Shown here: positions 2,979-63,683 of the stretch, piece after piece
How positions within the stretch are numbered: the first letter of the stretch is position 1
Layout of the letters: every line of letters starts with the position of its first letter
Virus record (IMG/VR): IMGVR_UViG_3300012642_000011
Span: 256,001 to 320,000 of that record
Direction: 5' to 3' (one strand)
Source of the DNA: a virus
Length of the DNA: 64,000 bases
Notes under the pieces: generated by a model
What the model was told of the DNA's origin: nothing
Seen by the model: only the letters and a program-made list of their open reading frames with translations
The model's database searches: none
Program-made: the position numbers and the translations under genes

Positions 2979-3497
2979 ATGAGCACGAAGAAATCAAAGC
3001 GACTGGCGTACATTCTGCGTCACGATCCGGCATCTGCGAACACCACTGCCAGTGAGCAGGGTTGGGTCAGTGTGTCGGATATCATGCGTGCTCTCAACGT
3101 CACCATGTCTCAGTTGCAGGTCATCGTGAGCGAGGACAACAAGGGTCGCTACGAGTTCTCTGCAGACAATGAGATGATCAGAGCAACTCAGGGCCACTCC
3201 TACCCTGTCAACTTGGGATGGGAGAGCGTGCTTCCTCCTGCTATCCTCTACCACGGCACGGCTACGCGATTCGTTGAGTCCATCATGCGTGAGGGTCTGG
3301 TCAAGGGGTCGCGTCAGTGGGTCCACCTGTCTGCTGACACTGCTACAGCCTCGATGGTTGGTTCTCGTCATGGCGAGTTGGTCATCCTTGAGGTGGCAGC
3401 ATCTCGCATGGCAGCGGATGGTCGCTCCTTCTACCGCTCTTCCAACGGCGTGTGGATGGCTGAACATGTCCCTGTGGAGTACATCACCACCCTCTGA
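2979..3497 (+). CDS. kptA: RNA 2'-phosphotransferase, Tpt1/KptA family
   Basis: Motifs LAYILRHDP, RATQGHS, LYHGTA, VHLSAD...RHG..VIL, NGVWM match the KptA/Tpt1 signature along the whole length. Promoter TTGATT-17-TACGAT upstream. Confidence 0.9.
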   Translation: MSTKKSKRLAYILRHDPASANTTASEQGWVSVSDIMRALNVTMSQLQVIVSEDNKGRYEFSADNEMIRATQGHSYPVNLGWESVLPPAILYHGTATRFVESIMREGLVKGSRQWVHLSADTATASMVGSRHGELVILEVAASRMAADGRSFYRSSNGVWMAEHVPVEYITTL

Positions 3498-8182: not shown

Positions 8183-8488
8183 TCATACGTTCACGATGGT
8201 GGCGTTCTTCATGTGCTGGTCGTAGGCGTCCACGATGATAGCGGCCAGCTGACCACGCTCGCTCACGTCGTAGCCGTTCTTGATGGCCCACGCTCGGATG
8301 GTGGCCGTGGTGGTCTTGGGGCGGTAGGAGGGGTTCTCGTCACGGAACTGGGCCACGAGATCCTTGGACAGACGACCACGGACGCTGACCTCGATGCCCT
8401 TGGACTTGGCCCACTGGCGGATGTCAGCGGCAGCCGAACGGCCAGCGATGAGGGTCTTGTCCTCGTTGTACTTGCGCTTGGTGGTCAT
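8183..8488 (-). CDS. Lsr2-like DNA-binding protein, two tandem C-terminal-type domains
   Basis: Two copies of the Lsr2 C-terminal motif (IRQWAKSKGIEVSVRGRLSKDLVAQF and IRAWAIKNGYDVSERGQLAAIIVDAY) with the RGR AT-hook-like core. Conserved leader/promoter. Confidence 0.75.
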   Translation of the reverse strand: MTTKRKYNEDKTLIAGRSAAADIRQWAKSKGIEVSVRGRLSKDLVAQFRDENPSYRPKTTTATIRAWAIKNGYDVSERGQLAAIIVDAYDQHMKNATIVNV

Positions 8489-8713
8489 GGTCTCTCCTAG
8501 GAGTAGTGGTTGGTGTTGAGATTGGCCCCTGTGGCCTCGCTGTTTGCTCTCAACCTGATGAATCAATAGTAGCACGGGGGACGCTCCATGTGCAACATGT
8601 GCAGCACGAATAATCTCGGGATAGTCGCAGCCCTCTATTGGATCACGTAAACTCGTGATAGTATGCTCACACATACCTATGGGGACACATAACTTGCTGT
8701 AAATAGTCAGGTA

Positions 8714-8762: not shown

Positions 8763-9488
8763 TCAGGTCGCACAATCGTTTCCGGTCAACTTTGCATAAT
8801 CACACACTTGTGCGTTGCCAGACACTTGTGCATTTCCGGCCACAAATGCACAATCGTACACTTGTGCGTTACCGGACACTTGTGCGCTGTCTGTTACTTC
8901 TGCATCGTCAGATACCTGTGTATTACCAGTCACTTGAGCGTTGTCATAAATAAATGCTTCACCGGATACTCGTGCTTTACCAGACACCCGTGCGTTACCT
9001 GCCACGCGCGAGTTGCCATAAATTCGCGTGTTACCAGACACTCGCGCATTATCGTACACCTCTGCGTTGCCATATACTCGTGCGTTGTCATGCACAAGAG
9101 CGTCATCAAACACGTAAGCGTCGCCGGACACACAAGCGCTACCGTACACCGAAGCATTGCCAAATACCCAAGCGTTCTCGAACACTCGCGCGTTGCCGTA
9201 AACCCGCGAGTCCTCAGTGACGTATATGTTACCAAGCAACTCTGCGTTATCATACGCCTGAGCGTTCTCGTACACCCGAGCGTTATCAGTCACGTGCGCA
9301 TTGCCGTACACCTTCGCCTCATCATTGACCCATGCATTATCTGAGAGATTGTCCATGCTCTCCACATAACCGCCCAGATCCCCAGATTTCACCTCATGAT
9401 CGGGCAGGTCGCGTGTGGCTCGAATACGGTGGAGCGTTCGACCGTTGTAGTGAATCGTTTCATCTGTCAGTTCGTAATTCTTATTCAT
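8763..9488 (-). CDS. hexapeptide-repeat (beta-helix-like) protein with conserved N-terminal domain, paralog 1 of 6
   Basis: N-terminus MNKNYELTDETIHYNGRTLHRIRATRDLP...GDLGG, then about 30 consecutive V-x-[GDE]-[ND]-A-x hexapeptides. RBS CAAGGAGAAATC. Confidence 0.8.
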   Translation of the reverse strand: MNKNYELTDETIHYNGRTLHRIRATRDLPDHEVKSGDLGGYVESMDNLSDNAWVNDEAKVYGNAHVTDNARVYENAQAYDNAELLGNIYVTEDSRVYGNARVFENAWVFGNASVYGSACVSGDAYVFDDALVHDNARVYGNAEVYDNARVSGNTRIYGNSRVAGNARVSGKARVSGEAFIYDNAQVTGNTQVSDDAEVTDSAQVSGNAQVYDCAFVAGNAQVSGNAQVCDYAKLTGNDCAT

Positions 9489-9502
9489 GATTTCTCCTTG
9501 TA

Positions 9503-10258
9503 TTATTTAGTCCAGCGTGCGACACGGGCGCGGCACTGATCAATGACGGATTGGTACTCGGGACGTGCGTCACGAATGATTTCAGGGTCAGTGGTTTCAA
9601 CCCATGAATCCGAGTCGCAGAGGATCTGGTGATCATCAAGAGTGCCTGACTTGCAACCGATATGGAGAACATGATCATCCGTGGTGCGGTGCAGGGTCCA
9701 ATTGAATTGCCGATTGGTGCAGAGTGTGCCGATCATAATATGCTTTTCTTCAGCCACTCGCGCGTACCCAAACACGTGTGCGTTACCAAAAACTCGCGCG
9801 TACCCAAACACCCGTGCGTTACCACACACCCGTGCCCAATTGTACACTTGTGCGTCATCGGACACTTGTGCGTTGTCTGTTACTTCTGCATTCTCAAATA
9901 TGTGTGCCTTACCAGCCACTTGAGCTTTGTCATAAATAAATGCGTCATCGGACACTAGTGCGTCCCCGAACACTTGTGCGTCCCCGAACACTTGTGCGTT
10001 ACCGGACACGCGTGCGTTGCCATATACACGCGCGTCATCGTACACCAAAGCGTTCCCTGACACTCGTGCGTCATCGTACACCATCGCCTCATCAGCGACC
10101 CATGCGCTATCGGAGAGGTTGTCCAGATGTTCCACGAAGCCGCCCAGATCGCCGGGCTTTACAGCGTGGTAGGGTAGTTCTCGTGTTGCACGAATGCGGT
10201 GGAGCGTTCGACCGTCGTAGTGAATCGTTTCATCTGTCAGTTCGAAATGCTTATTCAT
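9503..10258 (-). CDS. hexapeptide-repeat protein paralog 2 (non-repeat C-terminal extension)
   Basis: Same N-terminal domain and hexapeptide repeats. Own promoter TTGCGC-18-TAGGGT. Only 14 nt from the downstream paralog. Confidence 0.8.
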   Translation of the reverse strand: MNKHFELTDETIHYDGRTLHRIRATRELPYHAVKPGDLGGFVEHLDNLSDSAWVADEAMVYDDARVSGNALVYDDARVYGNARVSGNAQVFGDAQVFGDALVSDDAFIYDKAQVAGKAHIFENAEVTDNAQVSDDAQVYNWARVCGNARVFGYARVFGNAHVFGYARVAEEKHIMIGTLCTNRQFNWTLHRTTDDHVLHIGCKSGTLDDHQILCDSDSWVETTDPEIIRDARPEYQSVIDQCRARVARWTK

Positions 10259-10467
10259 GGCGTCTCCTTGAAAATGGTAGGGATTATCTTATCAACGATC
10301 CTATGCTGCCCTTACCCTATCATATGGGACGCTCTATGCGCAACCTATTTCTTGTACTAATTGGGCTATATTGCGACAAGTGATGCCGAAGTTTACACAA
10401 GGGGACACAGTAGCGAAAACAGAGAACGGACAAGGCGACAGTCGATGCCACCTTGTCCGTTCTCTGA

Positions 10468-10779
10468 TCAGGCTGCGAGGTTGTAGTAATCCTTGAGGTC
10501 AGTGTTCTTGAACCCACCCATAGCGTGAGCGTTTCGCTCCGACATGGCCCACGTGCGGATCTTCTTGTTCTGGGTGCGGTGGAAGTAGTTCCGGTTCCGC
10601 TGGACTCGCGTTCCGAAGTTGACGATATCCTCGTAGTTCGCGTAGGTGGTGTTGTCCTTCTTGTTCTTGACACGATTGATGGTGCTCTCATCGGCGGGGA
10701 AAAGGTAGATGCCCTTGCCGGGAACGCGGATCTCGACATGACCCTTGACATCGGAAGCGAAGACCTGGAAGTTCTGCAT
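10468..10779 (-). CDS. divergent Lsr2-like protein 103 aa (RGR motif replaced by MGG)
   Basis: N-terminal HVEIRVPGKGIYLFP resembles the Lsr2 N-terminal domain. C-terminal KKIRTWAMSERNAHAMGGFKNTDLKDYY is an Lsr2-like DNA-binding motif without the Arg-Gly-Arg core. Conserved leader. Confidence 0.6.
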   Translation of the reverse strand: MQNFQVFASDVKGHVEIRVPGKGIYLFPADESTINRVKNKKDNTTYANYEDIVNFGTRVQRNRNYFHRTQNKKIRTWAMSERNAHAMGGFKNTDLKDYYNLAA

Positions 10780-11022
10780 AATCTCTCCTTGAGAGTGGTA
10801 AGGGTCGCTCTGTGTTGCTCTCCCTTGCTGATGAGTCAATAGTAACACGGGGGACGCTCCATGCGCAACCTGACAGCAGAAATAATCTAGGGAGGCTCAC
10901 AACCTCTCGATTGGATCACTTCAATTCGTGATAGTATGCTCACACATACCTATGGGGACACATAACTTGCTGTAAACAGTCAAGTAGCACAGTAGGGATA
11001 CAACTACTGTGCTACTTGGGTT

Positions 11023-11724
11023 TTACCACCTGCAATCAAACCAATTAATTTCATCAGTAACTATTGCATTACCGGACACCCGCGAGTTACCAATCACCCG
11101 CGCATATTCGCAAACCCTCGAACAACCAGTCACTATTGCATTACCTGACACCAATGCTCTGTCTGTCACTTGTGCATTACCATTCACCATTGCTCTTTCA
11201 GAGACCAGTGAATTACCAAATACCTGTGCGTCACCCCTCACTATCGCGTCATCGATAACCCTTGTTTTGCCGTGTACACGAGCATTGCCAGACACATGCG
11301 CATGACCGAACACCCACGCTTCATCGAATACTCGTGCAGAGATATATACATATGCGTAACCGAACACCCGTGCGTCACCATAGACCCACGCTTCACCGGA
11401 CACTGATGAATTACCACTCACCAATGCGTTGCCGAAAACCCGCGCACTATTGTACACATGTGCAGTACCAGTCACCAATGCATTACCGGACACCATTGCC
11501 TTACCATTCACTTTTGCGCCCCCTGATACCCGCGCGTCCCCGTACACCATAGCCTCGCCACCGACCCATGCGATATCTGAAAGGTTATCCAAACGCTCCA
11601 CAAAACCACCCAGATCACCTGACTTTACGCGGTGCTCGGGCAAGTCTTGCGTGGCGCAGATACGATGGAGCGTGTGTCCTTCATAGCGGATCGTCTCATT
11701 TGTTAGTTCAAAGTGTTTAGTCAT
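11023..11724 (-). CDS. hexapeptide-repeat protein paralog 3
   Basis: Conserved N-terminal domain plus hexapeptide repeats. RBS GAGGAAAACC. Confidence 0.8.
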   Translation of the reverse strand: MTKHFELTNETIRYEGHTLHRICATQDLPEHRVKSGDLGGFVERLDNLSDIAWVGGEAMVYGDARVSGGAKVNGKAMVSGNALVTGTAHVYNSARVFGNALVSGNSSVSGEAWVYGDARVFGYAYVYISARVFDEAWVFGHAHVSGNARVHGKTRVIDDAIVRGDAQVFGNSLVSERAMVNGNAQVTDRALVSGNAIVTGCSRVCEYARVIGNSRVSGNAIVTDEINWFDCRW

Positions 11725-11825
11725 GGTTTTCCTCGTGAAGTAATGATCTTTGTTTATTTCCTATAGTAGATTTTTAGATTTTCCATCGGATTATTTCATT
11801 TCTTGATCAGGTTACTCACAGACGC

Positions 11826-12347
11826 TCACCTGTGCATCACGGTCACTTCTGCGTCGCCAGACACTCGCACGTCACCTGTCATCCATGCTTCTCCAAACAC
11901 GCGTGCGTTACCAATCACATTCACGCTGTCGGCCACAACCGCTTCCCCATACACGTGAGCATTCTCAGCCACGTATGCATTACCGGACACTCGCGTGTCG
12001 CCATGCACTCGCGCGTCACCTGTCACCCATGCTTCGCCGTACACTCGCGCATTACCGAACACCCGCGCGCGACCATCCACCAGTGCGTTACCGGCCACCT
12101 GTGCATTACCAGACACCTCTGCATTGCTGTACACCTGCGCGTTATCATATACTCGCGCGTCATCGTACACCTTGGCCTCATCAGCAACCCATGCGTTACC
12201 TGAAAGGTTGTCCATGCCCTCCACAAAACCGCCCAGATCACCGGCCTTCACGTCATGAATAGGCAGGTTTCGTGTTGCACGGATGCGGTAGAGCGTGCGG
12301 CCCTCATGATTGATGGTCTCGTCAGTCAGTTCGAAGTGCTTATTCAT
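11826..12347 (-). CDS. hexapeptide-repeat protein paralog 4
   Basis: Conserved N-terminal domain plus repeats. Own promoter TTGCGT-17-TAGGGT. Confidence 0.8.
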   Translation of the reverse strand: MNKHFELTDETINHEGRTLYRIRATRNLPIHDVKAGDLGGFVEGMDNLSGNAWVADEAKVYDDARVYDNAQVYSNAEVSGNAQVAGNALVDGRARVFGNARVYGEAWVTGDARVHGDTRVSGNAYVAENAHVYGEAVVADSVNVIGNARVFGEAWMTGDVRVSGDAEVTVMHR

Positions 12348-12573
12348 AGTTTCTCCTTGAAATGGTAGGTGATGACCTTACCCTATCATGGAGACGACCC
12401 ATACGCAACATGTGCAGCATGAATGATCTATGGAGACTCACGGTATCTCAATTGGGTCATTTCAACTCATGAGACTACTAAAGGGACACAAAACGTGGTA
12501 CAAACAAGGCAATCAGCACAGTAGGAATCCCACTACTGTGCTGATTGCCTTTTATTGCTTGGAATCAGGCCGC

Positions 12574-13038
12574 TCAATCAGTGCCGATTACCGACATCTC
12601 ATCGAACACTCGCGCGTCGCCGGACACTCGTGCGTTACCGGACACCCATGCGTTACCGAACACGTTCGCATCACCGGACACCCATGCGCTACCGGAGACA
12701 TATGCCCCTTCGTACACCCACGCATTGCCATAGACCCATGCATCGTCGTACACACGCGCATTGCCAAACACTCGTGCGTTACCGGACACTCGGGCGTAAC
12801 CGAACACTCGCGCGTTGTCATACACTCGCGCGTTATCAGTCACGTGTGCATTGCCGTACACCTTCGCCATATCAGCGACCCACGCGTTATGTGAGAGATT
12901 GTCCGTGCCCTCCACGAAACCACCCAGATCACCCTGCAGCACGTTGTGCTCTGGCAGGTCGCGTGTGGCACGGATGCGATAGAGCGTGCGACCCTCATGG
13001 TTGATGGTCTCGTCAGTCAGTTCGAAGTGGTTGCTCAT
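12574..13038 (-). CDS. hexapeptide-repeat protein paralog 5
   Basis: Conserved N-terminal domain plus repeats. Confidence 0.8.
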   Translation of the reverse strand: MSNHFELTDETINHEGRTLYRIRATRDLPEHNVLQGDLGGFVEGTDNLSHNAWVADMAKVYGNAHVTDNARVYDNARVFGYARVSGNARVFGNARVYDDAWVYGNAWVYEGAYVSGSAWVSGDANVFGNAWVSGNARVSGDARVFDEMSVIGTD

Positions 13039-13268
13039 AGCGTCTCCTTGAGAGTGGTAGGGTGTTGTCCTATTGACGTTCCCGTGATTCCCTTATCCTA
13101 TCATGGGAGACGCTCCACATGCAACACTAGTGATCTAGGGAGGCTCACGACATCTCAATTGGATCACTTCAACTCGTAAGAATGCTAAAGGGACACAAAG
13201 TATTAAGTAAACAATCAGGTAGCACAGTAGTGGTATTCCTACTGTACTACCTGACTTTTGTTGCTTGA

Positions 13269-14084
13269 TCAGGTCGCTCGTTCGTTACCTAACACTCGTG
13301 CGTAACCATACACCAGCGCGTTGTCGGTCACCCATGCATCACCCTGCACCTGAGCGTTGTCTTCCACTCGCGCATAGGTGAGCACGCATGCGTTACCAAA
13401 CACTCGCGCGTTACCGGACACTCGCGCATAGTCAGTCACTTGCGCGTTATCGTACACCATTGCACCACCGAACACCTGAGCGTTACCGGACACCTGTGCC
13501 TCACCGAACACTTGGGCGTTACGAGATACCCACGCGTTACCGGACACCACTGCATCGCCGTACACTTGTGCGTCTTCATCAATATATGCACCACCGAACA
13601 CCTGAGCGTTACCGTACACTCGGGCGCAATCGGACACTCGTGCGTTATCGTACACTCGCGCGTCGCAAAGCACTAGCGCGTTACCCGTCACTCGCGCGTT
13701 ACCGGACACTCGCGCATAGTCAGTCACTTGCGCGTTATCGTACACCATTGCACCACCGAACACCTGAGCGTTACCGGACACCTGTGCCTCACCGAACACC
13801 CAAGCGTAACCGAACACTCGCGCGTCGTCGCCAATATATGCCTTACCGAACACCCATGCATCATTGGATACCCGTGCGTTACCAGATACCAGCGCGTTAC
13901 CAAACACATACGCCTCATCAGCAACCCATGCATCATCTGAAAGGTTGTCCAGACGCTCCACGTAACCACCCAGATCCCCAGCCTTCACATCATGATCGGG
14001 CAGATCTCGTGTCGCACGGATACGATAGAGCGTTCGACCGTAGCGGATGATGGTATCGTTTGTCAGTTCGAAGTGCTTGCTCAT
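13269..14084 (-). CDS. hexapeptide-repeat protein paralog 6 (longest, internal duplication)
   Basis: Conserved N-terminal domain plus repeats. Internal near-identical segment duplication (GNAQVFGGAMVYDNAQVTDYARVSGNARV twice). Confidence 0.8.
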   Translation of the reverse strand: MSKHFELTNDTIIRYGRTLYRIRATRDLPDHDVKAGDLGGYVERLDNLSDDAWVADEAYVFGNALVSGNARVSNDAWVFGKAYIGDDARVFGYAWVFGEAQVSGNAQVFGGAMVYDNAQVTDYARVSGNARVTGNALVLCDARVYDNARVSDCARVYGNAQVFGGAYIDEDAQVYGDAVVSGNAWVSRNAQVFGEAQVSGNAQVFGGAMVYDNAQVTDYARVSGNARVFGNACVLTYARVEDNAQVQGDAWVTDNALVYGYARVLGNERAT

Positions 14085-17722: not shown

Positions 17723-17898
17723 GATGTTCTCCTATGAGTAGTGATGTTGCTTCTTGCAACATTTCGTATGTACAGAAATAATCTTACATGAGTAATTGGA
17801 ACATGTCAACCTACACCATGATCAGAACAGATGCAAGGAGGTAACGAGTTCGTCGTTTCGGTCTAGCACGGGGACGCTCCACGATCTTCGGAAATCAT

Positions 17899-17927
17899 GT
17901 TGCACATGAAGCGTCCCCGTGGTAGAG
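17899..17927 (+). promoter_or_regulatory. conserved promoter on the + strand (TTGCAC-ATGAAGCGTCCCCGTGG-TAGAGT) plus leader variant 2
   Basis: Same spacer motif, here in the orientation of a + gene (17993..18268). Confidence 0.65.
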
Positions 17928-17992
17928 TTGAGTCATCAACAAGGGAGAGCAACACAGAGCAATCCCGCACTACTCTCATCAAGGAGAACATC

Positions 17993-18268
17993 ATGAGCAA
18001 GCGTCGTGATGACATGGTTATCGCAGAACTGTCTTTTGAACTGGGTCGCATGGGATATGACCCGTATGGCACCTCTGAGCAGATCAAGATGCTGCCTCTT
18101 CGGGGTGGTCATCGGCTCTTCATTGACGGTCAGGAAGCCATGCAGGTCATGCAGTACATGGGGATGGCTGATCTTGCCTACTACGATTGTGGTCGGGGTG
18201 TGATCGAGACGGATAAGGGCGTAGATGATCTTCACGATCTGTTCCGCTCCATCCTGAAGGTCCAGTGA
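17993..18268 (+). CDS. hypothetical protein 91 aa
   Basis: Conserved + oriented promoter (17899-17927) and leader. RBS CAAGGAGAACATC. Confidence 0.7.
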   Translation: MSKRRDDMVIAELSFELGRMGYDPYGTSEQIKMLPLRGGHRLFIDGQEAMQVMQYMGMADLAYYDCGRGVIETDKGVDDLHDLFRSILKVQ

Positions 18269-18995: not shown

Positions 18996-19337
18996 TCAGG
19001 CGTGAGCGGCCTTGTAGGCGTCGATCACGTCCTTGGGGAAGCGGCCACGGGTGCCGACCTTGTAGCCGTTCGCCTTGGCCCACTCGCGGACCTTGGCGGC
19101 GTCCTGACCCACCTTCAGGTCGGGGTTGACCTTGTAGGAGCGGACGACGCGGCGGACGGAGTTCTCGATGATCTTGTCGGACTTCTCGATCAGGAACGTC
19201 TCGTCCTTGATCTTCTCCACGGACTTGGAGTTCAGGGGAACCTCGTACACACCCTTGTTGGGGATGCGCACCTGAACCAGCTTGGCACCCATCTGCTTGG
19301 TGATCGCGTCCTGCAGGAAAGCCTGGGTCTTCGTCAT
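18996..19337 (-). CDS. lsr2: Lsr2-like nucleoid-associated protein
   Basis: C-terminal [32 protein letters not shown] is the canonical Lsr2 DNA-binding motif. N-terminal oligomerisation-like domain. Conserved leader/promoter. Confidence 0.85.
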
Positions 19338-19580
19338 GATTTTCTCCTTGATGAGAGTATTTCGGGATTGCTCTGTGTTGCTCTCCCTTGCTGATGAATC
19401 AAATGTACCACAGGGGACGCTCCATGTGCAACATGATTTCCGAAGATCGTGGAACTTTTCTACCCGTGAGAACAAAAGGCAGCATGAAGACCACACACAG
19501 ACAACCCACAGGGGACACAAGATGAGAGCAACAAGAAAGGGTGTGGACGTTTGTATGCGGCCACACCCCTCTTTGATCAA

Positions 19581-20012
19581 TCAAGCCATAGCGATTGGAC
19601 CCCAATTGTCAGGAAGGCGAACCCCTCCACCGATCACCCCGAACGGCTTGCCAAGTTCGGGGATGTGCTCCACGGCAACCAGCGCAATGCAGGCATTTGT
19701 ATACCCATCGAAAGGCTCATCACCGTAAGACGTGCCACCCATGGAGTAGTGAACATAGCCTGTGTCCGCAATCGGACTCTCAGCGCAATCATAAGGGTCT
19801 GCAAGAATAAACAGGCCATCGCTCACAATGTCCACCACAGCATCCCTGTCCTCAGGATCATCAAAAAACTCATCATAATCCCACACATCGAGATCACTCA
19901 TAAGATCATATGAGTGCCGCTCCACAAGAATGCGAACGTCCTCTCGTGTCAGGTCGCTGTTATCCACAGCGGAGTCCAGCGTCCACCCAACACTCACAAA
20001 CGATGCCGACAT
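19581..20012 (-). CDS. hypothetical acidic protein 143 aa
   Basis: RBS AGAGGAGAACC before ATG. Confidence 0.65.
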   Translation of the reverse strand: MSASFVSVGWTLDSAVDNSDLTREDVRILVERHSYDLMSDLDVWDYDEFFDDPEDRDAVVDIVSDGLFILADPYDCAESPIADTGYVHYSMGGTSYGDEPFDGYTNACIALVAVEHIPELGKPFGVIGGGVRLPDNWGPIAMA

Positions 20013-20674: not shown

Positions 20675-21832
20675 TCAGCGACGGTTCAAGTACGCATTGA
20701 AGGCAAGAGACAGCGGCTTGATGAGAGGACGTGACCACTCGCCGTGAGTCTGCACCACGTCAGCGCCCACAGCCGTCTTGAACATGGTCAGGCCAGAAGT
20801 CTTGCCGTTCGCCTTCAATGATCCCGGCACGCCGATCAGGTCATACCACTTGCACCCATACTTCACGGCGTCAGAGATCATCTCCCACTGAACAGCGCGG
20901 GAAGCGTACATCTTACGATGCTCAGCACTGGAACCGCCGTACAGGTACCACAGAAAATCGCCCTGACGGATCGTGAGCGCTGCAGCAAGCGGAATGTCCT
21001 CGTGGTAAGCGACAATGACCTCAGCGTGGGCGATCTCCGAGCGATCAAAAACTTCAAGGAGACGCTCAAAGTAGGAGACAGGTCGGGGAGTGAACTGCTC
21101 ACGCTCTGCCGTCATCACATAGAGTGCGTGGAAATCATGCACGAGGGACGCTCCACGCTTGATGATCAGACCCTGCTTCAGAGACTTGCGCGTTTCGGAT
21201 CGAGAGGTCTGGTTCATGCGCATGAGGACGCTCTCGGCATCTGACTCAATCGGAATGCGTGCTTGAAACATGGGCTGACCATTACCGAAGTCCTCTTCGA
21301 TAGAAGGCTCCTTGAATCCAGCGCGAACCATGTCTGATTCAATGGAGATCTGGCGATAATCCACATCTGCCTGAAGTTCCATCAGGTGCTCGTACTGGTC
21401 GTCCTTGAGTGCCTTGCGTACCACGTCAGCATCCCAACGTCGGACAGTCTCAGGAAGACCCAGACGGAGTTCGAACGCACCAGTCTTCTTCACGTAGGAA
21501 GTCAGGGCAGGGAGCACATCAGAGATATGCACATCTGCGTTTACTACAGGACCTTCACTGATGTAGGCCAGAGACAGGTTGCCGATCACAGGGATCTTGT
21601 TCACGACAGGAAGCGGGCGGTAGAGGATCAGGGACGCTCCAACCAGAACGTCCTCATGGTAGATGCCTACGGACTCGTTGCGCCACTCGCTCTTGACCTC
21701 ACCCCAGTGTGGGTTCTGCAGGAAGGATGCAGCAGGACGGGTAGACAGATATGCCTCATGCTGATCTGCGGTGATAGCGCGGATCGTGTAGTCCTTGTTT
21801 GCCTTGATTGGCTTGGTTGCGGTAGCGGTCAT
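20675..21832 (-). CDS. FemAB-family / GNAT-fold aminoacyltransferase-like protein 385 aa
   Basis: Length and overall pattern resemble FemABX-type (Acetyltransf_6) proteins. The assignment is not verified. RBS TGAGGAAACT. Hairpin 20624-20664 at the stop. Confidence 0.8.
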   Translation of the reverse strand: MTATATKPIKANKDYTIRAITADQHEAYLSTRPAASFLQNPHWGEVKSEWRNESVGIYHEDVLVGASLILYRPLPVVNKIPVIGNLSLAYISEGPVVNADVHISDVLPALTSYVKKTGAFELRLGLPETVRRWDADVVRKALKDDQYEHLMELQADVDYRQISIESDMVRAGFKEPSIEEDFGNGQPMFQARIPIESDAESVLMRMNQTSRSETRKSLKQGLIIKRGASLVHDFHALYVMTAEREQFTPRPVSYFERLLEVFDRSEIAHAEVIVAYHEDIPLAAALTIRQGDFLWYLYGGSSAEHRKMYASRAVQWEMISDAVKYGCKWYDLIGVPGSLKANGKTSGLTMFKTAVGADVVQTHGEWSRPLIKPLSLAFNAYLNRR

Positions 21833-38573: not shown

Positions 38574-39416
38574 TCACCACGCGGGAGCACCCACGGGGAG
38601 GTTGGTGATGCCACACGTGCTCACAGCATCCGACAGAGCGGCCCGCTCAGCGTTGGTCACAGCGAGATCGTACTTGGACTTCACAGCGATCTGATGGGCG
38701 GCGATCAGGCAGCTACCGGAAGCGGAAGGAGCCTGCCACTCATCGAAAGAGTCATCGGACTTATCCTGATTCACCTTGGACGCCGTGGGAGCAAGGTTCA
38801 GAGGATCGTTGGCGATCTGGTAGCGCATGTCAGGGGAAGCCCATGCGTGAGCGCCGGAGTCCCACGCGTTGGAGAGAGCAACAATGTGGTCGATCTGAAT
38901 GCTCTTGGACACCTCATCTGCCGTGGTGGCAGAGATAGTCTTTCCCGTGTAGGGGTCAACCATCGTGCCGGAGAGCACACGGCACTTCGCGTTCACCTCA
39001 GCATCCGGCATGGCGGCGATCAGGGTCTCATCACGGGTATCACAGCCGTCCTTGTCGAAATCCATCCACGATCCGAACAGAGCCTCACGCTCGCCAGAGT
39101 AACCAGCGGCCTTGGCACCGTCGTAAGTGTCCAGAGCGTTCAGGGCCTCCATGGCATCCATCCCCGTGTAGGAGGAACCATCGAAGGAGGCATCAGAAGA
39201 GGACTCTCCACCAACCGCCTCAGACAGAGCATCCTTGCCCTTGTCCAGCATGGAGTCGATCTTCGCCTTGCCCTCGTCAAGCAGGGCGTCCGTGGCAGAG
39301 GAAGCAGCCTCAGTGGCCGTGCTCTCCACGGTGCTCTGAATGGTCTGGCAACCAGTGGCCGTCATGGCGGCGAGGGTGAGGGTGATGCCAGCGGTGATCT
39401 TCTTGAGCGTCTTCAT
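38574..39416 (-). CDS. lipoprotein with C-terminal DUF1524/HNH-type nuclease domain
   Basis: Signal peptide plus lipobox-like LAAMTATGC. C-terminal GCDTRDETL...DPYTG...IDHIVALSNAWDSGAHAW...NDPLNLAPTASKVNQDKSD matches the DUF1524 (GmrSD-C-like HNH) pattern. RBS CAGGAGAGACC. Confidence 0.8.
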   Translation of the reverse strand: MKTLKKITAGITLTLAAMTATGCQTIQSTVESTATEAASSATDALLDEGKAKIDSMLDKGKDALSEAVGGESSSDASFDGSSYTGMDAMEALNALDTYDGAKAAGYSGEREALFGSWMDFDKDGCDTRDETLIAAMPDAEVNAKCRVLSGTMVDPYTGKTISATTADEVSKSIQIDHIVALSNAWDSGAHAWASPDMRYQIANDPLNLAPTASKVNQDKSDDSFDEWQAPSASGSCLIAAHQIAVKSKYDLAVTNAERAALSDAVSTCGITNLPVGAPAW

Positions 39417-39632
39417 GGTCTCTCCTGAGTTGGGGAAGTGCTTCTTGTTGACCCCAGTATAGGCACATGGAGGCTTGGATTGCAAATCAACAGGACGCTC
39501 CATACTTCATGATGTCGTGGTGCTCTGCGTTTTCAGGGAGAAAAGAGCGACACCAGACGCGAGGGGACACTGTTTGATCGAAAACGCACAACAGGGGAGG
39601 AACAGGTTTCCCCGTCCCTCCCCTGCCGATCA

Positions 39633-44630: not shown

Positions 44631-45029
44631 TCAGAACAACGTAGGATGCTCGTAGAACTCGTGGACGATCACAGGAACCTTCTTGCTCAATGCAATCTTC
44701 ATGCAGTTGCGAGTACCATAGGAGTCGCCATAAGGGAAGGCAACGCACAAGTCAACGCCGGTATCAACCATCTTGGCATTCCTGATGTAGCCTGCTGACT
44801 TGCCATACTCATCCCACTGTGCAGGATGAGCCTCAACAACCCAACCACGCTCGACAGCCCACTGCGCACCTATCGCATCTGCGCCACGCGCGTTGCCATG
44901 CACGAACACGTTCTCCTTGTCCTCGCCGTGCTGTAACACCCACTTGTCGTAAGCGTCATCAAGCGCTTCATATACCTCTGCAGCATGGTCATCCGTGAGA
45001 TTACGGCTTCCTGTGATCAGCATTCTCAT
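44631..45029 (-). CDS. DUF2493 (SLOG/YpsA-like) family protein
   Basis: MRMLITGSR...VHGNARGADAIGAQWAVERG...AQWDEYGKSAGYIRNAKMV...LCVAFP fits the DUF2493 pattern common in actinophages. RBS AAGGAGGAATCATT. Confidence 0.75.
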   Translation of the reverse strand: MRMLITGSRNLTDDHAAEVYEALDDAYDKWVLQHGEDKENVFVHGNARGADAIGAQWAVERGWVVEAHPAQWDEYGKSAGYIRNAKMVDTGVDLCVAFPYGDSYGTRNCMKIALSKKVPVIVHEFYEHPTLF

Positions 45030-45761: not shown

Positions 45762-46595
45762 ATGATGATGCAGGCTGAGATCTTCAAGACCGTGGAGACC
45801 ACGAAGAAGGTTGCTATCTCTGGCGATTGGCACGGTGATACCACGTGGGCGCTGGATATGATCAGGGCTGTCCATGATCGTGGCATCAAGGTCATCCTCC
45901 ACGTTGGTGACTTCGGGATCTGGCCGGGCAAGTCGGGTGCATCGTATCTGCGCAAGGTGAACAATGCTCTTGCTGATCGTGGTATGATCCTTCTGCTGAC
46001 TGCTGGCAACCATGAGGACTACACTCAGATCGGCAAGGCTGAGCAGGTGGAGGGCATGCCCGATGGGTTCAAGGCGCGTGCTCATGCTCCCCATGTGATC
46101 ATCCTTGATCGTCCGACTCGTTGGATGATGGGGGGACGCTCTTTCATCTCCGTGGGCGGTGCGAACAGCATTGACTTTCAGGGTGGCACCTTAGGCAAGG
46201 ATTACTGGCTGGACGAGCAGATCACGGATGAGCAGGTGGATCTTGCCCGTGAGGGTGGTCACGCTGAAATCATGATCTCTCATGATACTGCTACAGGCGT
46301 CATGGACGGCATCGTGGATTCTGCCTCCGAGTGGACGGAAGAGGGCTTTAAGTACGCTCAGAAGTCCTCTGACCAGTTGAAGCGCATCACGGACGATGTT
46401 CGCCCCGTGGTGAACTTCTTCGGGCACTACCACAGGTTCATTAACCGCACTGTGACGCTGCGCGTTCCGTTCATGGGCGATTACGCTATGCGTGCTGTGT
46501 GCTTGGACATGCAGAGGCGTGCTGGCAACACTGTCATCTTCGACATTGAGGCCATGCGCATTGATGAGGTCTCCATCTGGGGGCTGCGAGTGTGA
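45762..46595 (+). CDS. calcineurin-like metallophosphoesterase (lambda-phosphatase / Pnkp phosphoesterase-like)
   Basis: Motifs GDWHGD, VGDFGIW, GNHE, GHYH. RBS AGAAGGAGGA before ATGATGATG. Terminator 46599-46642. Confidence 0.85.
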   Translation: MMMQAEIFKTVETTKKVAISGDWHGDTTWALDMIRAVHDRGIKVILHVGDFGIWPGKSGASYLRKVNNALADRGMILLLTAGNHEDYTQIGKAEQVEGMPDGFKARAHAPHVIILDRPTRWMMGGRSFISVGGANSIDFQGGTLGKDYWLDEQITDEQVDLAREGGHAEIMISHDTATGVMDGIVDSASEWTEEGFKYAQKSSDQLKRITDDVRPVVNFFGHYHRFINRTVTLRVPFMGDYAMRAVCLDMQRRAGNTVIFDIEAMRIDEVSIWGLRV

Positions 46596-50197: not shown

Positions 50198-50635
50198 TCA
50201 CGGGAGCACGATTCCCACGCCCTTGAACCCCACCTGATCCTTGATCTCATCAATGGCACCAATGACATCGAGAGCAAACTGGACATACAGATCAGACTCA
50301 TGATTCATGTACGTACCACGCCCCAAGAGGGTGACGAAGACGTAATCGGAATCACCGATCACGTACTCGGTGCTGTGAGAACTACCAGTACCGTAAGTAT
50401 CCACAAGTGCATACAGAATGGCATCCACAGTCTTATGCACAATGGAAGGGAAGTGAGCGTCGAAGTCAATGGGATTGTAATCACCACCGATGTTCTCCAT
50501 GCGATCCTTGATGAAGGACTCATCGAAAACAGCCTTCACAGTGTCCTTGTGCTTGATCAGGATCGAGGTGAAGTCGATCTTCTCGGTCTCGTAGAACCCG
50601 ATGGCCTTGCTGGTGTCAATAGTGTATCCGTACAT
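50198..50635 (-). CDS. hypothetical protein 145 aa
   Basis: RBS CTCAAGGAGAAAAC. Bidirectional hairpin 50150-50190. Confidence 0.75.
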   Translation of the reverse strand: MYGYTIDTSKAIGFYETEKIDFTSILIKHKDTVKAVFDESFIKDRMENIGGDYNPIDFDAHFPSIVHKTVDAILYALVDTYGTGSSHSTEYVIGDSDYVFVTLLGRGTYMNHESDLYVQFALDVIGAIDEIKDQVGFKGVGIVLP

Positions 50636-50769
50636 GTTTTCTCCTTGAGAAATGTGCCTGATGGATTTTTGCTTCTACGAACACACTACAGGAGACAAGT
50701 GATCATGTCAACCTGTCTCCTGTAGTGCGTTACAGATCAGGGACGCTCCACCAACGTTTACAGGTGTTT

Positions 50770-50995
50770 TAATTCTGTGGATAACCCTGTGGATAAAATT
50801 GTGGATACTCAAGTACCCCCGAAGTGTCCATAAGTAAACCCTGTGGATACGCTTGTACGCAAGCGTTTTATCGAGCAGTTATCCACAGGTAGTGATCAGC
50901 ATGTGAGCAATAGTTATCCACAGCCTGTTGAGAACTGAAGAACACCTCGCAAACTCCTTGCATATCGCTGTGGATAACATACTTGTGGCGAGGAT
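50770..50995. promoter_or_regulatory. cluster of at least 7 DnaA-box 9-mers (TTATCCACA/TGTGGATAA, TGTGGATAC): candidate origin or DnaA-titration region
   Basis: TGTGGATAA at about 50775, 50787, 50968. TGTGGATAC at about 50799, 50841. TTATCCACA at about 50878, 50913. Weak TTGTGGCGA at about 50982. Non-coding, with an AT-rich stretch at about 51030-51045. Confidence 0.6.
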
Positions 50996-51079
50996 CGGGG
51001 ACACAAAATGATGTCATGCAAAAGTCGAGGGCAAGCACTCATATAAAAATCAATGGTGCTTGCCCTCGAACTCTCTTGA

Positions 51080-51253
51080 TCAGCGCGTCTCGATCAGCAG
51101 TGGGACGCTCCACTCCTGCTTGACATGGACAGGGGCGGGATCAGATGCTTCCACGTCTTCCATTCGCCCCCGAAGGATGCGCTGCGAATCTGCGCTCAGG
51201 GCCATCTTGTTGGGGTCGATCTTGACCAGACGGACGTTCTTGATGTTCTCCAT
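51080..51253 (-). CDS. small protein 57 aa (MENIKNVRLVKIDPNKMALSADSQRILRGRMED...)
   Basis: ORF trimmed to the ATG with RBS GAGGAGAAGTGATTCC. Faint, unverified AbrB/MazE-like pattern. Confidence 0.5.
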   Translation of the reverse strand: MENIKNVRLVKIDPNKMALSADSQRILRGRMEDVEASDPAPVHVKQEWSVPLLIETR

Positions 51254-51509
51254 GATGGAATCACTTCTCCTCATTGTTCACTGTTAGCAACGTGTTCATG
51301 TTACAGACCTTGCGTATCGTCGTCAACTTGGTGTAGAGAAGATGACCGGCAAGCATGCTCAACACGGATTGTCTCACACCTATCATAGATGACGATCTAC
51401 CGTTTGCATCATGGGACGCTCCATGTGTGTGAATCGGATTGACAACGCAGTGACCATGCTCTACTGTTTCTCATGTCGGCAAAAATCCTCAATCGAAGAA
51501 GGAACCATC

Positions 51510-52135: not shown

Positions 52136-52720
52136 ATGAAGCCGTTATTGTACATGGACATTGATGGCGTCCTCAACCCCTTGCGTTCTCGATCCAAAGG
52201 ACGCCCTGAAGGGTGGAACGCAGCGTATATGGACAATTCTGGCGATGAACCCATTGTCTTCCCATCAAAGAGGTTCTACAGGTACAAGAATCATGGGCAC
52301 ATCATCGTCTGGTACCCTGTGGACGCGCGTGAGTGGTTCGACGCTCTCAAGGATGTCTACGATGTCTGCTGGGCAAGCAAGTGGGGACGCTCCGCAAGCA
52401 CTGTCTACGCTGGACTTTTCGGTATGGAAGGCGAGATCCCGTTCCTCGACATTCCTAACATTCCAGAGGCGCAATGCCCCCTCTCGCGTTACACTGGCCG
52501 TCATGCCAAGGATTGCGACTGCCTGCACTCCAAGACGCTATTGCTGACCGATCACGCCGATGGTCGTCCGTTCGTGTGGGTGGATGATGAGGCGACCAAG
52601 AGGGACGTGACATGGTTGACCCAGAACGATCCACGTGGCCGTGCTTACATCGTGGACGGGTATCACGGATTGCGCCGTGGTGATGTCAACTCGTTGGTGG
52701 GCATGGCACAGGATCTCTAA
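52136..52720 (+). CDS. HAD-superfamily phosphatase-like protein
   Basis: Motif I LLYMDIDGVLNP (DxDGT-like). Later VWVDDEA. Terminator 52722-52772. Confidence 0.75.
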   Translation: MKPLLYMDIDGVLNPLRSRSKGRPEGWNAAYMDNSGDEPIVFPSKRFYRYKNHGHIIVWYPVDAREWFDALKDVYDVCWASKWGRSASTVYAGLFGMEGEIPFLDIPNIPEAQCPLSRYTGRHAKDCDCLHSKTLLLTDHADGRPFVWVDDEATKRDVTWLTQNDPRGRAYIVDGYHGLRRGDVNSLVGMAQDL

Positions 52721-61170: not shown

Positions 61171-61830
61171 TCACACAGCGGTCAGAAGGGACTGCACAAC
61201 GTCAGCGTTCGTGATCACGGGGGCAGGGGTGACAGGGAAGGGCTTCACCTTAGTCTTGGTGTGTGCCGACTGGTAGGCGAGGATCACCTGATTACGCAGC
61301 CGCCCAGTGTCAGCCACGGTGTACCCGTTGTCCTTGGCCCATGCGCGAATCTTGGCGGCGTTACGGTTCTTCCCCTTCTTGCTGGGCGACTTGATGAAGC
61401 GATCATCCTTGAAACCGTAAGCCTGAGCGTAGGCGATCAAGAGATCATTGGACAGGCGACCACGATCAGCGGTGGTGTAACCGTTCTCCTTGCCCCATTC
61501 ACGAATCAGAACGGAGTCAGGGACATGCTTGGTCTTGGTGGTCTTGACCTTCTCTTCCTTGGTGTTCAGGACATGGATGCGACCACCAGTGATGCTCTCG
61601 TCAACGGGGCAACCGTGAGCGACGTAGGACTCGACCACGGAGCGGTGCAGACGGCCACGGGTGCCGGTCTGGATACCCTGAGACTTGGCCCATGCCCGCA
61701 CCTGAACGGCGTTGTACGCGACGCCCTCCTTGTCTGCATACGTGGTGATCTGGGAGATCAGGTTGTGGAACTTGGCATCCACCTTCTCATCGGAAATGGA
61801 GTAGGTGGTGTTGTTGATGGTGATGTTCAC
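61171..61830 (-). CDS. Lsr2-like protein with three tandem DNA-binding domains (GTG start)
   Basis: Three repeats: VQVRAWAKSQGIQTGTRGRL, LIREWGKENGYTTADRGRL, AKIRAWAKDNGYTVADTGRL. RBS AAAGGATCATC before GTG. Terminator 61118-61160. Confidence 0.8.
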   Translation of the reverse strand: MNITINNTTYSISDEKVDAKFHNLISQITTYADKEGVAYNAVQVRAWAKSQGIQTGTRGRLHRSVVESYVAHGCPVDESITGGRIHVLNTKEEKVKTTKTKHVPDSVLIREWGKENGYTTADRGRLSNDLLIAYAQAYGFKDDRFIKSPSKKGKNRNAAKIRAWAKDNGYTVADTGRLRNQVILAYQSAHTKTKVKPFPVTPAPVITNADVVQSLLTAV

Positions 61831-61995
61831 GATGATCCTTTGTTCGTGTGCTCTGTTGTGTACTGATCCCATCCTATAACACCGGAGAAGTCAATGCAAC
61901 ATGTGATTCCATTGGTGCGTCATCTGTCGTCATATTTAATGGGGACACAGAATGAGAGCATGCGAGCACTTGGTGAGAGTGCTTGCTCATGGTGG

Positions 61996-62622: not shown

Positions 62623-62970
62623 TCACTTGTTGTGAGCGGCGCGGTAACGCTTCACGGTGTCACGGGACAGACGGCCACGCTTGCCCTTCTCGATCAGGCC
62701 CTTCTCCTCAGCCCACGCGCGGATCTCGGCGGCGGAGTCGGAGACCACAACGGTATCCTTATCGGTGAACTGGTACTTCTTGCGGATCTTGTTCTTCAGG
62801 ATCTTCTCGGCGTTCTCAGCCACGAACTTGGGGTCCTGGACCTTGGTGGCGGACTTGGCGTTCAGCGGGACGATGTAGATACCCTTGTTCGGGATCAGCA
62901 CCTCCACGGGCTTGGCACCCATCTGCTTGGTGATCGCGTCCTGCAGGAACTTCTTCTGGGTCTTGGTCAT
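62623..62970 (-). CDS. lsr2: Lsr2-like nucleoid-associated protein
   Basis: N-terminus [37 protein letters not shown]-terminus AAEIRAWAEEKGLIEKGKRGRLSRDTVKRYRAAHNK. Paralog of 18996..19337. RBS GAAAGGAAGCATC. Confidence 0.85.
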   Translation of the reverse strand: MTKTQKKFLQDAITKQMGAKPVEVLIPNKGIYIVPLNAKSATKVQDPKFVAENAEKILKNKIRKKYQFTDKDTVVVSDSAAEIRAWAEEKGLIEKGKRGRLSRDTVKRYRAAHNK

Positions 62971-63683
62971 GATGCTTCCTTTCAAAGTGATCATTGTGAT
63001 CAGGATGTGTGTTCTTCTGTCTTGCTGGTATCCATGTTGCCACATTATTTCTTCCGTGTCAACTATGGATCTGCATTTTTCTCAAGGTTCCTTCTGCTTC
63101 TCTGTCGGCTTCCGTTGCCTTGATGAGTACATCATGGCACACCTTTAATCCCCGTGTCAACACTTTTGCCAAAATTTTCTCAAAAATCCTCTGACATGGG
63201 TGTTTACAAGAGAATCAGGGGGCTGAACAAAGGGACGCTCCACGAACTCACACCTGCTGCCTGTTGTAATAATTCTTATATAAGCCTTATATAAGCAAAA
63301 AGAAAGCATACAGGGACGCTCCACATACATAGCCTACAGGTCTGCAATCCTTCCTCTGCGACAAGAGAAGAGCGTTCAGAACACCTCTGCATGGGGACGC
63401 TCCACACATGCGGGATGAGGAGGTCACATCAGTGTGCTTGCTGGACACGCTGTACGCCGTTCTGAGGGCATGAAGGAGTGGCAAGCCATCAATGTTCGTA
63501 CCAGACCTAGAAACGCCCCACAGGGGCACACAGCCTCTCGTGGAAGGGCGTACAGCCGCCTAAGGTGACTTGTGAATCACTCCACGGTCATGGTTTCCCT
63601 GTAGGGACACAGAATGACGAAACATAGACAAAGCACCCTGTGTTCTCCCCGTCAAGAGAGCACAGGGTGCTTCAATGTGTCTA

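Follow-up and report, generated by a model that had tools for sequence, protein, structure and literature searches.

What does a phage gain from a dense array of binding sites for the replication initiator of its host? DnaA is the universal bacterial initiator, and phage-borne clusters of its binding sites, the DnaA boxes, are known from a few cases, among them P1 oriR and the T5 iss region, the latter with a hypothetical role. The question is raised here by a 64,000-bp stretch of viral DNA (positions 256,001 to 320,000 of IMG/VR record IMGVR_UViG_3300012642_000011; hereafter the window, with coordinates counted from its first letter). A preliminary description of this stretch had singled out a cluster of DnaA boxes near 50.8 kb and proposed that it was either a DnaA-dependent origin or a decoy that titrates DnaA. 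Our analysis leads us to propose, tentatively, that the element is a DnaA-box cluster outside any origin, which would serve as a high-affinity landing pad for host DnaA on phage DNA. The observations that speak for this proposal are the identity and enrichment of the boxes, their flanks, the insulation of the cluster, its conservation, the absence of origin hallmarks and the presence of a single such cluster in about 83 kb.

Seven DnaA boxes in one intergenic gap

Seven of the nine TGTGGATA 8-mers present on both strands of the window, and five of its six perfect TTATCCACA 9-mers, fall within the 202 bp between 50776 and 50977. The boxes at 50776, 50788, 50879, 50914 and 50969 match TTATCCACA or its complement without mismatch, while those at 50800 and 50842 read GTATCCACA, with one mismatch at position 1. 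Along the plus strand the seven are arranged as < < < < > > <, where < stands for TGTGGATAA. The first three (50776, 50788 and 50800) stand in tandem with 3-bp spacers, that is, at a 12-bp period, and the boxes at 50879 and 50914 are inverted relative to the other five. A C precedes TGTGGATA in six of the seven, and the full unit cTGTGGATAAc is found in four (50776, 50879, 50914 and 50969). The seven boxes of the preliminary description and their non-coding location were therefore borne out, its coordinates being each 1 nt low, and so was their strict identity as DnaA boxes, as they are mostly perfect 9-mers and most have flanks that recur in other arrays. With its three mismatches, the weak eighth box placed at about 50982 (TGTGGCGAG) is not credible; at up to two mismatches the cluster has no further sites than TTATGGACA at 50825 and TTCTCAACA at 50926. 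When box clustering was simulated 1000 times with a first-order Markov model, counting boxes with at most one mismatch in 250-bp windows, the maximum was three or fewer and no simulation reached the seven observed. The Poisson estimate for the cluster is about 5e-11 window-wide. The sites of the cluster are as follows.

50776..50784, minus strand: DnaA box G, perfect TTATCCACA, first of the tandem triple and nearest the downstream promoter
50788..50796, minus strand: DnaA box F, perfect TTATCCACA
50800..50808, minus strand: DnaA box E, GTATCCACA, one mismatch at position 1
50825..50833, minus strand: degenerate box TTATGGACA, two core mismatches, doubtful
50842..50850, minus strand: DnaA box D, GTATCCACA, one mismatch, abutting an 18-bp palindrome
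50849..50866, no strand: palindrome ACGCTTG-TACG-CAAGCGT between the opposed boxes D and C, followed by TTTTAT on the plus strand
50879..50887, plus strand: DnaA box C, perfect TTATCCACA, inside the 12-nt repeat AGTTATCCACAG
50914..50922, plus strand: DnaA box B, perfect TTATCCACA, forming a 12-nt perfect inverted repeat with box A
50926-50934: weak site TTCTCAACA, two mismatches
50969..50977, minus strand: DnaA box A, perfect TTATCCACA

The preliminary description had asked for a genome-wide scan for other clusters. The part of the genome examined comprises the window and roughly 20 kb of flanks, about 83 kb or a quarter of some 332 kb, and no further box cluster was found in it. The sole other perfect TTATCCACA of the window lies at 19960-19968 (plus strand), with the same flanks, in a small palindrome (GCTGTTATCCACAGC) within apparently coding DNA. 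Three weaker boxes, GTATCCACA, GCATCCACA and TTATGCACA, stand in 12-bp register at 50397-50441 (plus strand), inside the gene downstream of the cluster, and point toward the main array. The first of them is weakened by a synonymous change in two strains (L127 and L128), and we left the membership of these intragenic sites in the element as doubtful.

The boxes lie in a gap of 444 bp (50636-51079), and not of 230 bp as first described, between two genes of the minus strand that are transcribed leftward and are both called as genes in public assemblies. Followed along the direction of transcription, the gap contains a terminator hairpin, box A, the opposed boxes B and C, the palindrome at box D and the triple E-F-G. 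These are followed by a 12-nt AT patch, an orphan copy of the 11-mer TGGAGCGTCCC, a sigma-70-type promoter, a ribosome binding site and the ATG at 50635. The cluster is thereby placed 65-270 bp upstream of a host-type promoter.

51080..51253, minus strand: upstream gene, 57 aa, no Pfam match even at E <= 5
51025..51069, minus strand: hairpin, likely the intrinsic terminator of the 57-aa gene, with a 14-bp perfect stem and a 17-nt AT-rich loop, then CTTTTG
50740..50750, minus strand: orphan TGGAGCGTCCC between box G and the promoter, with further copies at 51102-51112 and 51413-51423
50683..50711, minus strand: putative sigma-70-type promoter of the 145-aa gene, TTGACA-17 nt-TAGTGT, recognised from the consensus
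50641-50646: ribosome binding site AAGGAG, a good match, ahead of the 145-aa gene
50198..50635, minus strand: downstream gene, 145 aa, no family match, containing the three weak boxes at 50397-50441

The putative promoter sits within an inverted repeat whose two arms are 21 nt long (50680-50700 and 50711-50731); a simple promoter scan did not list it, and we infer it from its fit to the consensus. One independent assembly (L004, ERZ1031066 NODE_15) ends in this inverted repeat, at window position ~50692 and 57 bp before the start codon of the 145-aa gene, which could be a repeat-induced break or something structural. The AT-rich stretch reported next to the boxes amounts to the 17-nt loop of the terminator hairpin plus the 12-nt patch beside the first box. 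As for the small open reading frame (ORF) at 51080-51253, it does exist and is called as a 57-aa gene. The AbrB/MazE-like label that it had been given is unsupported because its product has no Pfam family even at E <= 5; a 64-aa version had none at E <= 0.01, and no PHROG match was found. The AlphaFold2 model of the 145-aa protein was unusable (predicted local distance difference test score, pLDDT, of 52). Between 50600 and 51420 there were no repeat families beyond those derived from the boxes and the TGGAGCGTCCC motif. A structured RNA was considered for the conserved gap and rejected, the Rfam matches being only sub-threshold microRNA-like hairpins on the promoter inverted repeat. The fold z-score of the gap, -2.4, is explained by pairing between the inverted boxes.

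The locus is also strongly conserved. Six assemblies are 99% identical across it. Compared with the most diverged strain available (L127), whose 145-aa homologue is 90% identical, the 300 bp from 50742 to 51041 are 100% identical and the 400 bp from 50642 to 51041 carry two substitutions, against an average divergence of roughly 7% in the surrounding 9 kb. In 100-bp bins of that 9-kb alignment most values are between 88% and 99% identity and some between 72% and 80%. Two other intergenic gaps fall to 60-64% with indels, and a third, around 49.8 kb, stays at 94%. All 63 box positions (seven boxes of nine) are invariant across four strain variants, which differ at only about 12 positions of the gap, substitutions too few for a comparison of boxes with spacers. 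On these alignments the pattern indicates that the whole gap is under constraint or has gone through a recent sweep.

Origin hallmarks and similar arrays elsewhere

Origins that are opened by DnaA are built from boxes, a GC-rich spacer, DnaA-trios and an AT-rich DNA unwinding element (DUE) (PMC8287927). Clustered non-coding boxes with a tandem pair no more than 3 bp apart are present here (seven in 202 bp, including the triple). DnaA-trios are taken here as runs of three or more 3'-NAT-5' units (typically GAT) that follow a GC-rich spacer and lie no farther than 16 bp from a box. The region 50600-51100 contains no (TAN)x3 run, and its best relaxed NTN run, of three units, is at chance level. 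The gap has no DUE: its stability is lowest in the terminator loop for 20-mers (0.5th percentile of the window) and in the boxes themselves for 30-mers and 50-mers, and many other places in the window are less stable. The AT dip of the cluster falls at the 10th percentile of 105 phage arrays. The preliminary description had proposed to look for an inflection of GC skew at the locus; in the window there is no extremum at 50.8 kb, cumulative skew rising smoothly from 46 to 53 kb, weak evidence where a phage is concerned, with 64 of 332 kb covered. No iterons distinct from the boxes occur in 50600-51420, and the inverted repeats at the cluster are formed by the boxes themselves plus local palindromes. 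Profile searches with Pfam and PHROGs found no DnaA, Rep, helicase, primase or polymerase family among the 106 ORFs of the window or in the roughly 20 kb of flanks, and genes and promoters point leftward on both sides of the cluster. Without a DUE, trios, a skew inflection, iterons or a replication protein family, the suggested DnaA-dependent origin finds no support in its classical form. What it does have is a dense set of intergenic high-affinity boxes without an unwinding element, as in chromosomal DnaA-box clusters (DBCs) or datA. It also has the untranslated location, the 3-bp box spacing and the conservation above coding DNA of the T5 iss type.

Scanning IMG/VR for exact matches to three TGTGGATA cores with a 12-bp period identified at least 120 viral contigs (L007-L126) with three or more boxes at this period, at GC contents from 28% to 66%. 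Because so many contigs carry similar arrays, the DnaA-box array is not in itself exotic, and the view that such an element would be unusual for a phage finds no support. The consensus of the array unit, cTGTGGATAA[C/G][C/T]C, is the same at a contig GC of 28% as at 66% among the contigs listed, and many of the listed arrays have 6-13 perfect boxes within 150-250 bp. About half of the listed contigs have the array within an ORF (about 270-330 aa), and its translation there gives V-D-N/K(-S) repeats. Among the matches listed, 33 such ORFs included matches to HTH_36 (11), MarR_2 (9), HTH_11 (7), Phage_rep_O (1) and DnaA_N (1), and one has a homologue annotated as replication protein O. The intergenic arrays among the same matches adjoin genes for RusA (8), VapE (2), DUF5906 (2), Rep3, RepL and one Bac_DnaA_C protein. 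From these ORF families and intergenic neighbours it follows that the usual context of such an array is a lambdoid-type replication module, and the present cluster lies outside such a context. The in-gene arrays look like a widespread class of DnaA-box origins, little described so far, that lie within initiator genes of phages.

A stricter pattern, in which a triple is followed by one more box and then by an inverted one, was matched by eight metagenomic loci (L197-L204), none of which is a relative of this phage and at least two of which are genuine chromosomal oriCs. One (L202, 3600-3860) lies between dnaA and dnaN and the other (L198, 11287-11520) upstream of dnaN. In each of them, 10 perfect TTATCCACA-type boxes form converging arrays, accompanied by a GGCCC/GCCCC spacer, DnaA-trios of the form (TAC)n and AT-rich DNA. 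As controls for the trio search they gave six trio units (L198) and four to five (L202) after GGCCC/GCCCC; in L198, TTATCCACAGTTTCCACAGGCCC is followed by TAT(TAC)4TAT and AT-rich DNA, and the arrangement in L202 is equivalent.

These arrays also bear on which protein would bind the phage boxes. That cTGTGGATAAc is common to unrelated phages and to cellular origins points to the universal host protein DnaA and not to a private phage regulator, and binding of DnaA at the seven boxes is, as judged from their sequence, very probable. The preliminary description had found it noteworthy that boxes of this type, and not TTGTCCACA, should occur with an actinobacterial host. The remark has a basis: TTGTCCACA, which has no occurrence in the window, is given as the high-affinity box for M. 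tuberculosis and S. coelicolor (PMC4285127). The case for an anomaly is nevertheless weakened. The oriC of Bifidobacterium longum has been described with both TTATCCACA and TTGTCCACA boxes (PMC2430713), and the same TGTGGATAA array is present in an actinophage-like contig of 66% GC (L091), the terminase of which is similar to terminases of Streptomyces, Mycobacterium and Gordonia phages. The chromosomal oriC in L198 likewise has 66% GC yet boxes of this type.

The replicon, its host and neighbouring genes

The 145-aa protein is encoded on a contig of 332,269 bp (ENA ERZ27289831 k141_11150) and on many shorter contigs of other samples. Reverse-complemented, the window corresponds to about 59.7-123.7 kb of the long contig, in which the locus falls at about 72.8-73.0 kb. 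Searches with blastn and megablast, using the locus and 50 kb of the window, found no nucleotide similarity to any of 50,697 catalogued phages or to plasmids. IMG/VR contained no distant relatives of the 145-aa protein, and among 5.8 billion proteins it matched only clusters at 90% identity or more. The lineage was found in IMG/VR neither with this protein nor with the motif described below. The replicon is phage-like and comes from a previously unsampled lineage.

The window is made up of small genes, nearly all leftward, with sigma-70-like promoters. A recurrent feature is the 11-mer TGGAGCGTCCC, which has 38 exact copies in the window, all on the minus strand and none on the plus strand (canonical copies are found, for example, at 497, 2103, 8594, 19430, 22274, 54434 and 55432), and 66 matches at up to two mismatches against six expected. 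Some half of them act as the spacer in a sigma-70-like promoter, in the order TTGACA or TTGCACA, TGGAGCGTCCC, N6 and TAnnnT. The others are orphans without a -35 or a -10, among them those at 50756, 51118 and 51429 and three at 81-bp spacing at 63.2-63.4 kb (63248, 63329 and 63410). The motif is probably a lineage-specific promoter or operator signal. Used as a probe for relatives it gave no match in IMG/VR, and in combination with the boxes none in the Joint Genome Institute (JGI) metagenome collection. A strand-biased 12-mer, GGGACGCTCCA[C/T], was tried as a Chi- or KOPS-like motif of replication polarity and rejected; because it is largely the spacer of leftward promoters, it gives nothing certain on replication.

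Families recognised in the window with Pfam and PHROGs include Lsr2, beta-solenoid paralogues, an RNA-repair set, FemAB and GmrSD_C/HNH. The Lsr2 DNA-binding domains number four, possibly five, and lie on the minus strand at 8183-8674, 18996-19580, 61171-61872 and 62623-63045, with the possible fifth at 17897-18268 (plus strand); another is found on a flanking contig (L206, 11508-12005). At least four or five in 64 kb is an unusually high dose of this actinobacterial nucleoid-associated silencer. The best available clue to the host clade is the FemAB-family peptidyl transferase (20675-21832, minus strand; 385 aa, Pfam E 4e-47), which has 36-40% identity with proteins from Nocardioidaceae, Propionibacteriales, Microlunatus and Kitasatospora. 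From the four Lsr2 domains and the FemAB similarity the host is probably a member of the Actinomycetota, possibly Propionibacteriales-like, in agreement with the actinobacterial host assumed at the outset.

Several other genes deserve mention. Six tandem paralogues of the YdcK-type beta-solenoid or bactofilin-like family occupy 8763-14084 (minus strand; PHROGs 5070 and 7964, E down to 1e-99), and their homologues are scattered among phages of many phyla. Dispersed over the window are genes with predicted RNA-repair activities (2'-phosphotransferase, RNA ligase, cyclic-phosphate processing receiver domain and HAD phosphatase). These are Tpt1/KptA at 2979-3497 (plus), HAD_SAK_2 at 52136-52720 (plus), Metallophos at 45768-46595 (plus) and YAcAr at 44631-45029 (minus), with RNA ligase/PHA02142 OB and cREC_REC ORFs elsewhere. 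Judged by these families, the dispersed toolkit suggests a defence against host tRNA or anticodon nucleases. A GmrSD_C/HNH_4 nuclease-like protein of 309 aa (38574-39503, minus strand) might, on a phage, point to modified DNA or to an anti-defence role. An IS605 OrfB/TnpB (Cas12f-like) gene (L206, 16410-17621) is located about 6 kb past the left end of the window, inside the phage-like contig.

Possible roles and comparison with known systems

If the cluster is a landing pad for DnaA outside any origin, then host DnaA, in its ATP or ADP form, would occupy the seven consensus boxes. The three boxes spaced by 3 bp would nucleate a short DnaA oligomer, and the inverted boxes B and C together with A would permit a looped or bridged complex. 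The upstream terminator, the promoter 65-270 bp away and the missing unwinding module suggest that such a complex would act in two ways, locally and globally. Locally, expression of the 145-aa gene, or read-through into it, would be tied to the availability of DnaA. Globally, at least seven DnaA molecules would be sequestered per copy of the phage genome, and hundreds of replicated genomes would drain DnaA from the oriC of the host. Non-origin DnaA-box clusters of bacterial chromosomes (the DBCs of B. subtilis, datA of E. coli and the D78 cluster of Streptomyces) drain DnaA when amplified, and by analogy with them both downstream effects, promoter gating and DnaA sequestration, may apply here.

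Several considerations weigh against this proposal. Seven sites per genome are a trivial sink before amplification, and afterwards host initiation may not matter any more. At least 65 bp separate the boxes from the -35 downstream of them, a long distance for direct control of the promoter, and conservation of the spacers, beyond the boxes, is not required of a pure decoy. The arrays of our survey, among the matches listed, are found mostly in or beside replication-initiator genes, and the base rate therefore favours a role in replication. Because DnaA-trios are also missing in 99 of the 105 surveyed phage arrays, their absence here does not exclude a phage origin. A phage origin that uses DnaA need not carry the basal unwinding system (BUS) of chromosomal origins. 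A more pointed version of the proposal, in which a lytic giant actinophage carries a DNA decoy, an oriC-like oligomerisation region minus its unwinding module, that shuts down host initiation or tethers the entering genome, appears unlikely to us.

If the cluster were a decoy or an anchor, takeover of the host would be achieved by a cis-acting DNA element instead of a protein, and a sink or anchor of this kind would represent a new type of host manipulation at the level of DNA. If it were an origin, a giant phage would depend on the initiator of its host. DnaA-box clusters on mobile replicons are already known; of interest here are the giant, probably actinobacterial phage, the complete lack of origin partners and the conservation. 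In the literature searched we found no report of DnaA-box clusters in actinophages, nor of a phage-borne DnaA decoy. The locus is a clean natural example: it lies in a previously unsampled genome of about 332 kb that resembles those of actinophages, has seven optimal boxes, is strongly conserved and shows none of the hallmarks of an origin.

The main rival is that the cluster is a DnaA-recruiting origin module, at which host DnaA loads the host helicase for early theta replication. Opening would then proceed without a classical DUE. Because the adjacent promoter transcribes away from the boxes, it would create negative supercoiling at them, and the inverted repeat, the hairpins or an unrecognised phage initiator could contribute. 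The pattern of a tandem triple with opposed boxes does retrieve genuine dnaA/dnaN-linked oriCs from metagenomes. The listed viral arrays lie inside initiator-type genes (HTH_36, MarR-like and Phage_rep_O; 11, 9 and 1 of 33) or adjoin genes for RusA, VapE, Rep3 or RepL, and most of them are likewise without trios. The geometry of E. coli and of the BUS puts opening 3' of TTATCCACA, where the AT patch, the promoter and the inverted repeat are situated for the triple, and the whole 300-400 bp are conserved, spacers included. However, there is no DUE, trio or iteron here, the AT dip ranks at the 10th percentile among the surveyed phage arrays, the GC skew does not turn, genes and promoters run leftward on either side and no replication gene was found in about 83 kb. 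In addition, we know of no lytic jumbo phage that depends on DnaA. Taken together, we consider an origin module possible but doubtful.

Two further explanations are both improbable in our judgement. One is an early-region signal of T5 type, located in the DNA that enters first, by which membrane-associated DnaA would pause, anchor or organise the incoming genome, in line with the proposal for the injection-stop (iss) region of T5. This T5-like reading is attractive because the T5 boxes are also untranslated, spaced by 3 bp, hyper-conserved and not an origin. As in T5, the present cluster is better conserved than its surroundings and has inverted repeats associated with its boxes, and the window seems rich in small genes that have sigma-70-like promoters. 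Against it, the mechanism in T5 is no more than a hypothesis, the locus is about 73 kb into a 332-kb contig, and there is no sequence similarity to catalogued phages. The other is that the boxes are iterons for a phage-encoded binder, either a DnaA domain-IV-like fold or another regulator, the match to DnaA boxes being coincidental. One listed array of the survey does adjoin a phage ORF with a Bac_DnaA_C domain, about 250 kb of the genome lie outside the inspected part, and the abundant TGGAGCGTCCC demonstrates that this genome uses private DNA signals. Nevertheless, five of the seven sites match all nine universal DnaA-box positions, four have the full recurrent flanks, the same cTGTGGATAAc unit occurs in unrelated phages and chromosomal origins, and no Bac_DnaA_C or other candidate is found among the 106 ORFs of the window. 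Chance or base composition without function is statistically refuted: isolated one-mismatch boxes do occur elsewhere in the window at background frequency, but none of 1000 simulations exceeded three boxes per 250 bp against the seven observed, the Poisson estimate is vanishingly small and all 63 box positions are invariant in the four strain variants.

The proposed landing pad can be set beside four kinds of known systems. It is like an oriC with a BUS (PMC8287927; L198 and L202) in its tandem boxes at most 3 bp apart, its opposed arrays and its many perfect TTATCCACA sites. True oriCs, in contrast, have a GC-rich spacer, DnaA-trios and an AT-rich DUE beside the box pair and are flanked by dnaA or dnaN, none of which is seen at the phage cluster. 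DnaA-assisted origins of plasmids and phages such as P1 oriR, pSC101, F and RK2 have, besides their boxes, an AT-rich region together with Rep iterons and/or an initiator gene. With these, and with the in-gene arrays of IMG/VR, the cluster shares tandem consensus boxes on a mobile replicon and an identical cTGTGGATAAc unit. Its 444-bp gap differs from them in having no iterons, initiator gene or AT-rich region, and profile searches of the roughly 83 kb around it found no initiator family.

The closest phage precedent is the box cluster of T5 iss. T5-like phages have seven to eight DnaA boxes, in pairs 3 bp apart, in an untranslated region that is conserved above coding DNA and is not an origin (Davison, bioRxiv 10.1101/866236). 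Both clusters are thus phage-borne, untranslated, built on a 12-bp period, associated with inverted repeats, conserved above coding DNA and away from replication genes. In T5 the boxes form four pairs tied to the large IRC/IRD repeats, and about half are variants, whereas here there are a triple and single boxes, five of the seven perfect. The iss region belongs to the terminal repeat of a 121-kb coliphage; the present host is probably actinobacterial. The two share no sequence homology, and the function of the T5 boxes is itself hypothetical.

Finally, the DBCs of B. subtilis (PMC2533591) and datA and DARS of E. coli (PMC5835720, PMC6868365) are chromosomal DnaA-box clusters outside the origin that bind DnaA stably. 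The phage cluster resembles the DBCs and datA in its dense intergenic high-affinity boxes, in the absence of an unwinding element and in its position beside a promoter. datA and DARS need, in addition, IHF and a specific box geometry. DBCs and datA modulate initiation and/or neighbouring genes from the host chromosome and in the service of the host cell cycle, whereas the boxes described here are carried by a phage-like replicon, the copy number of which rises in infection.

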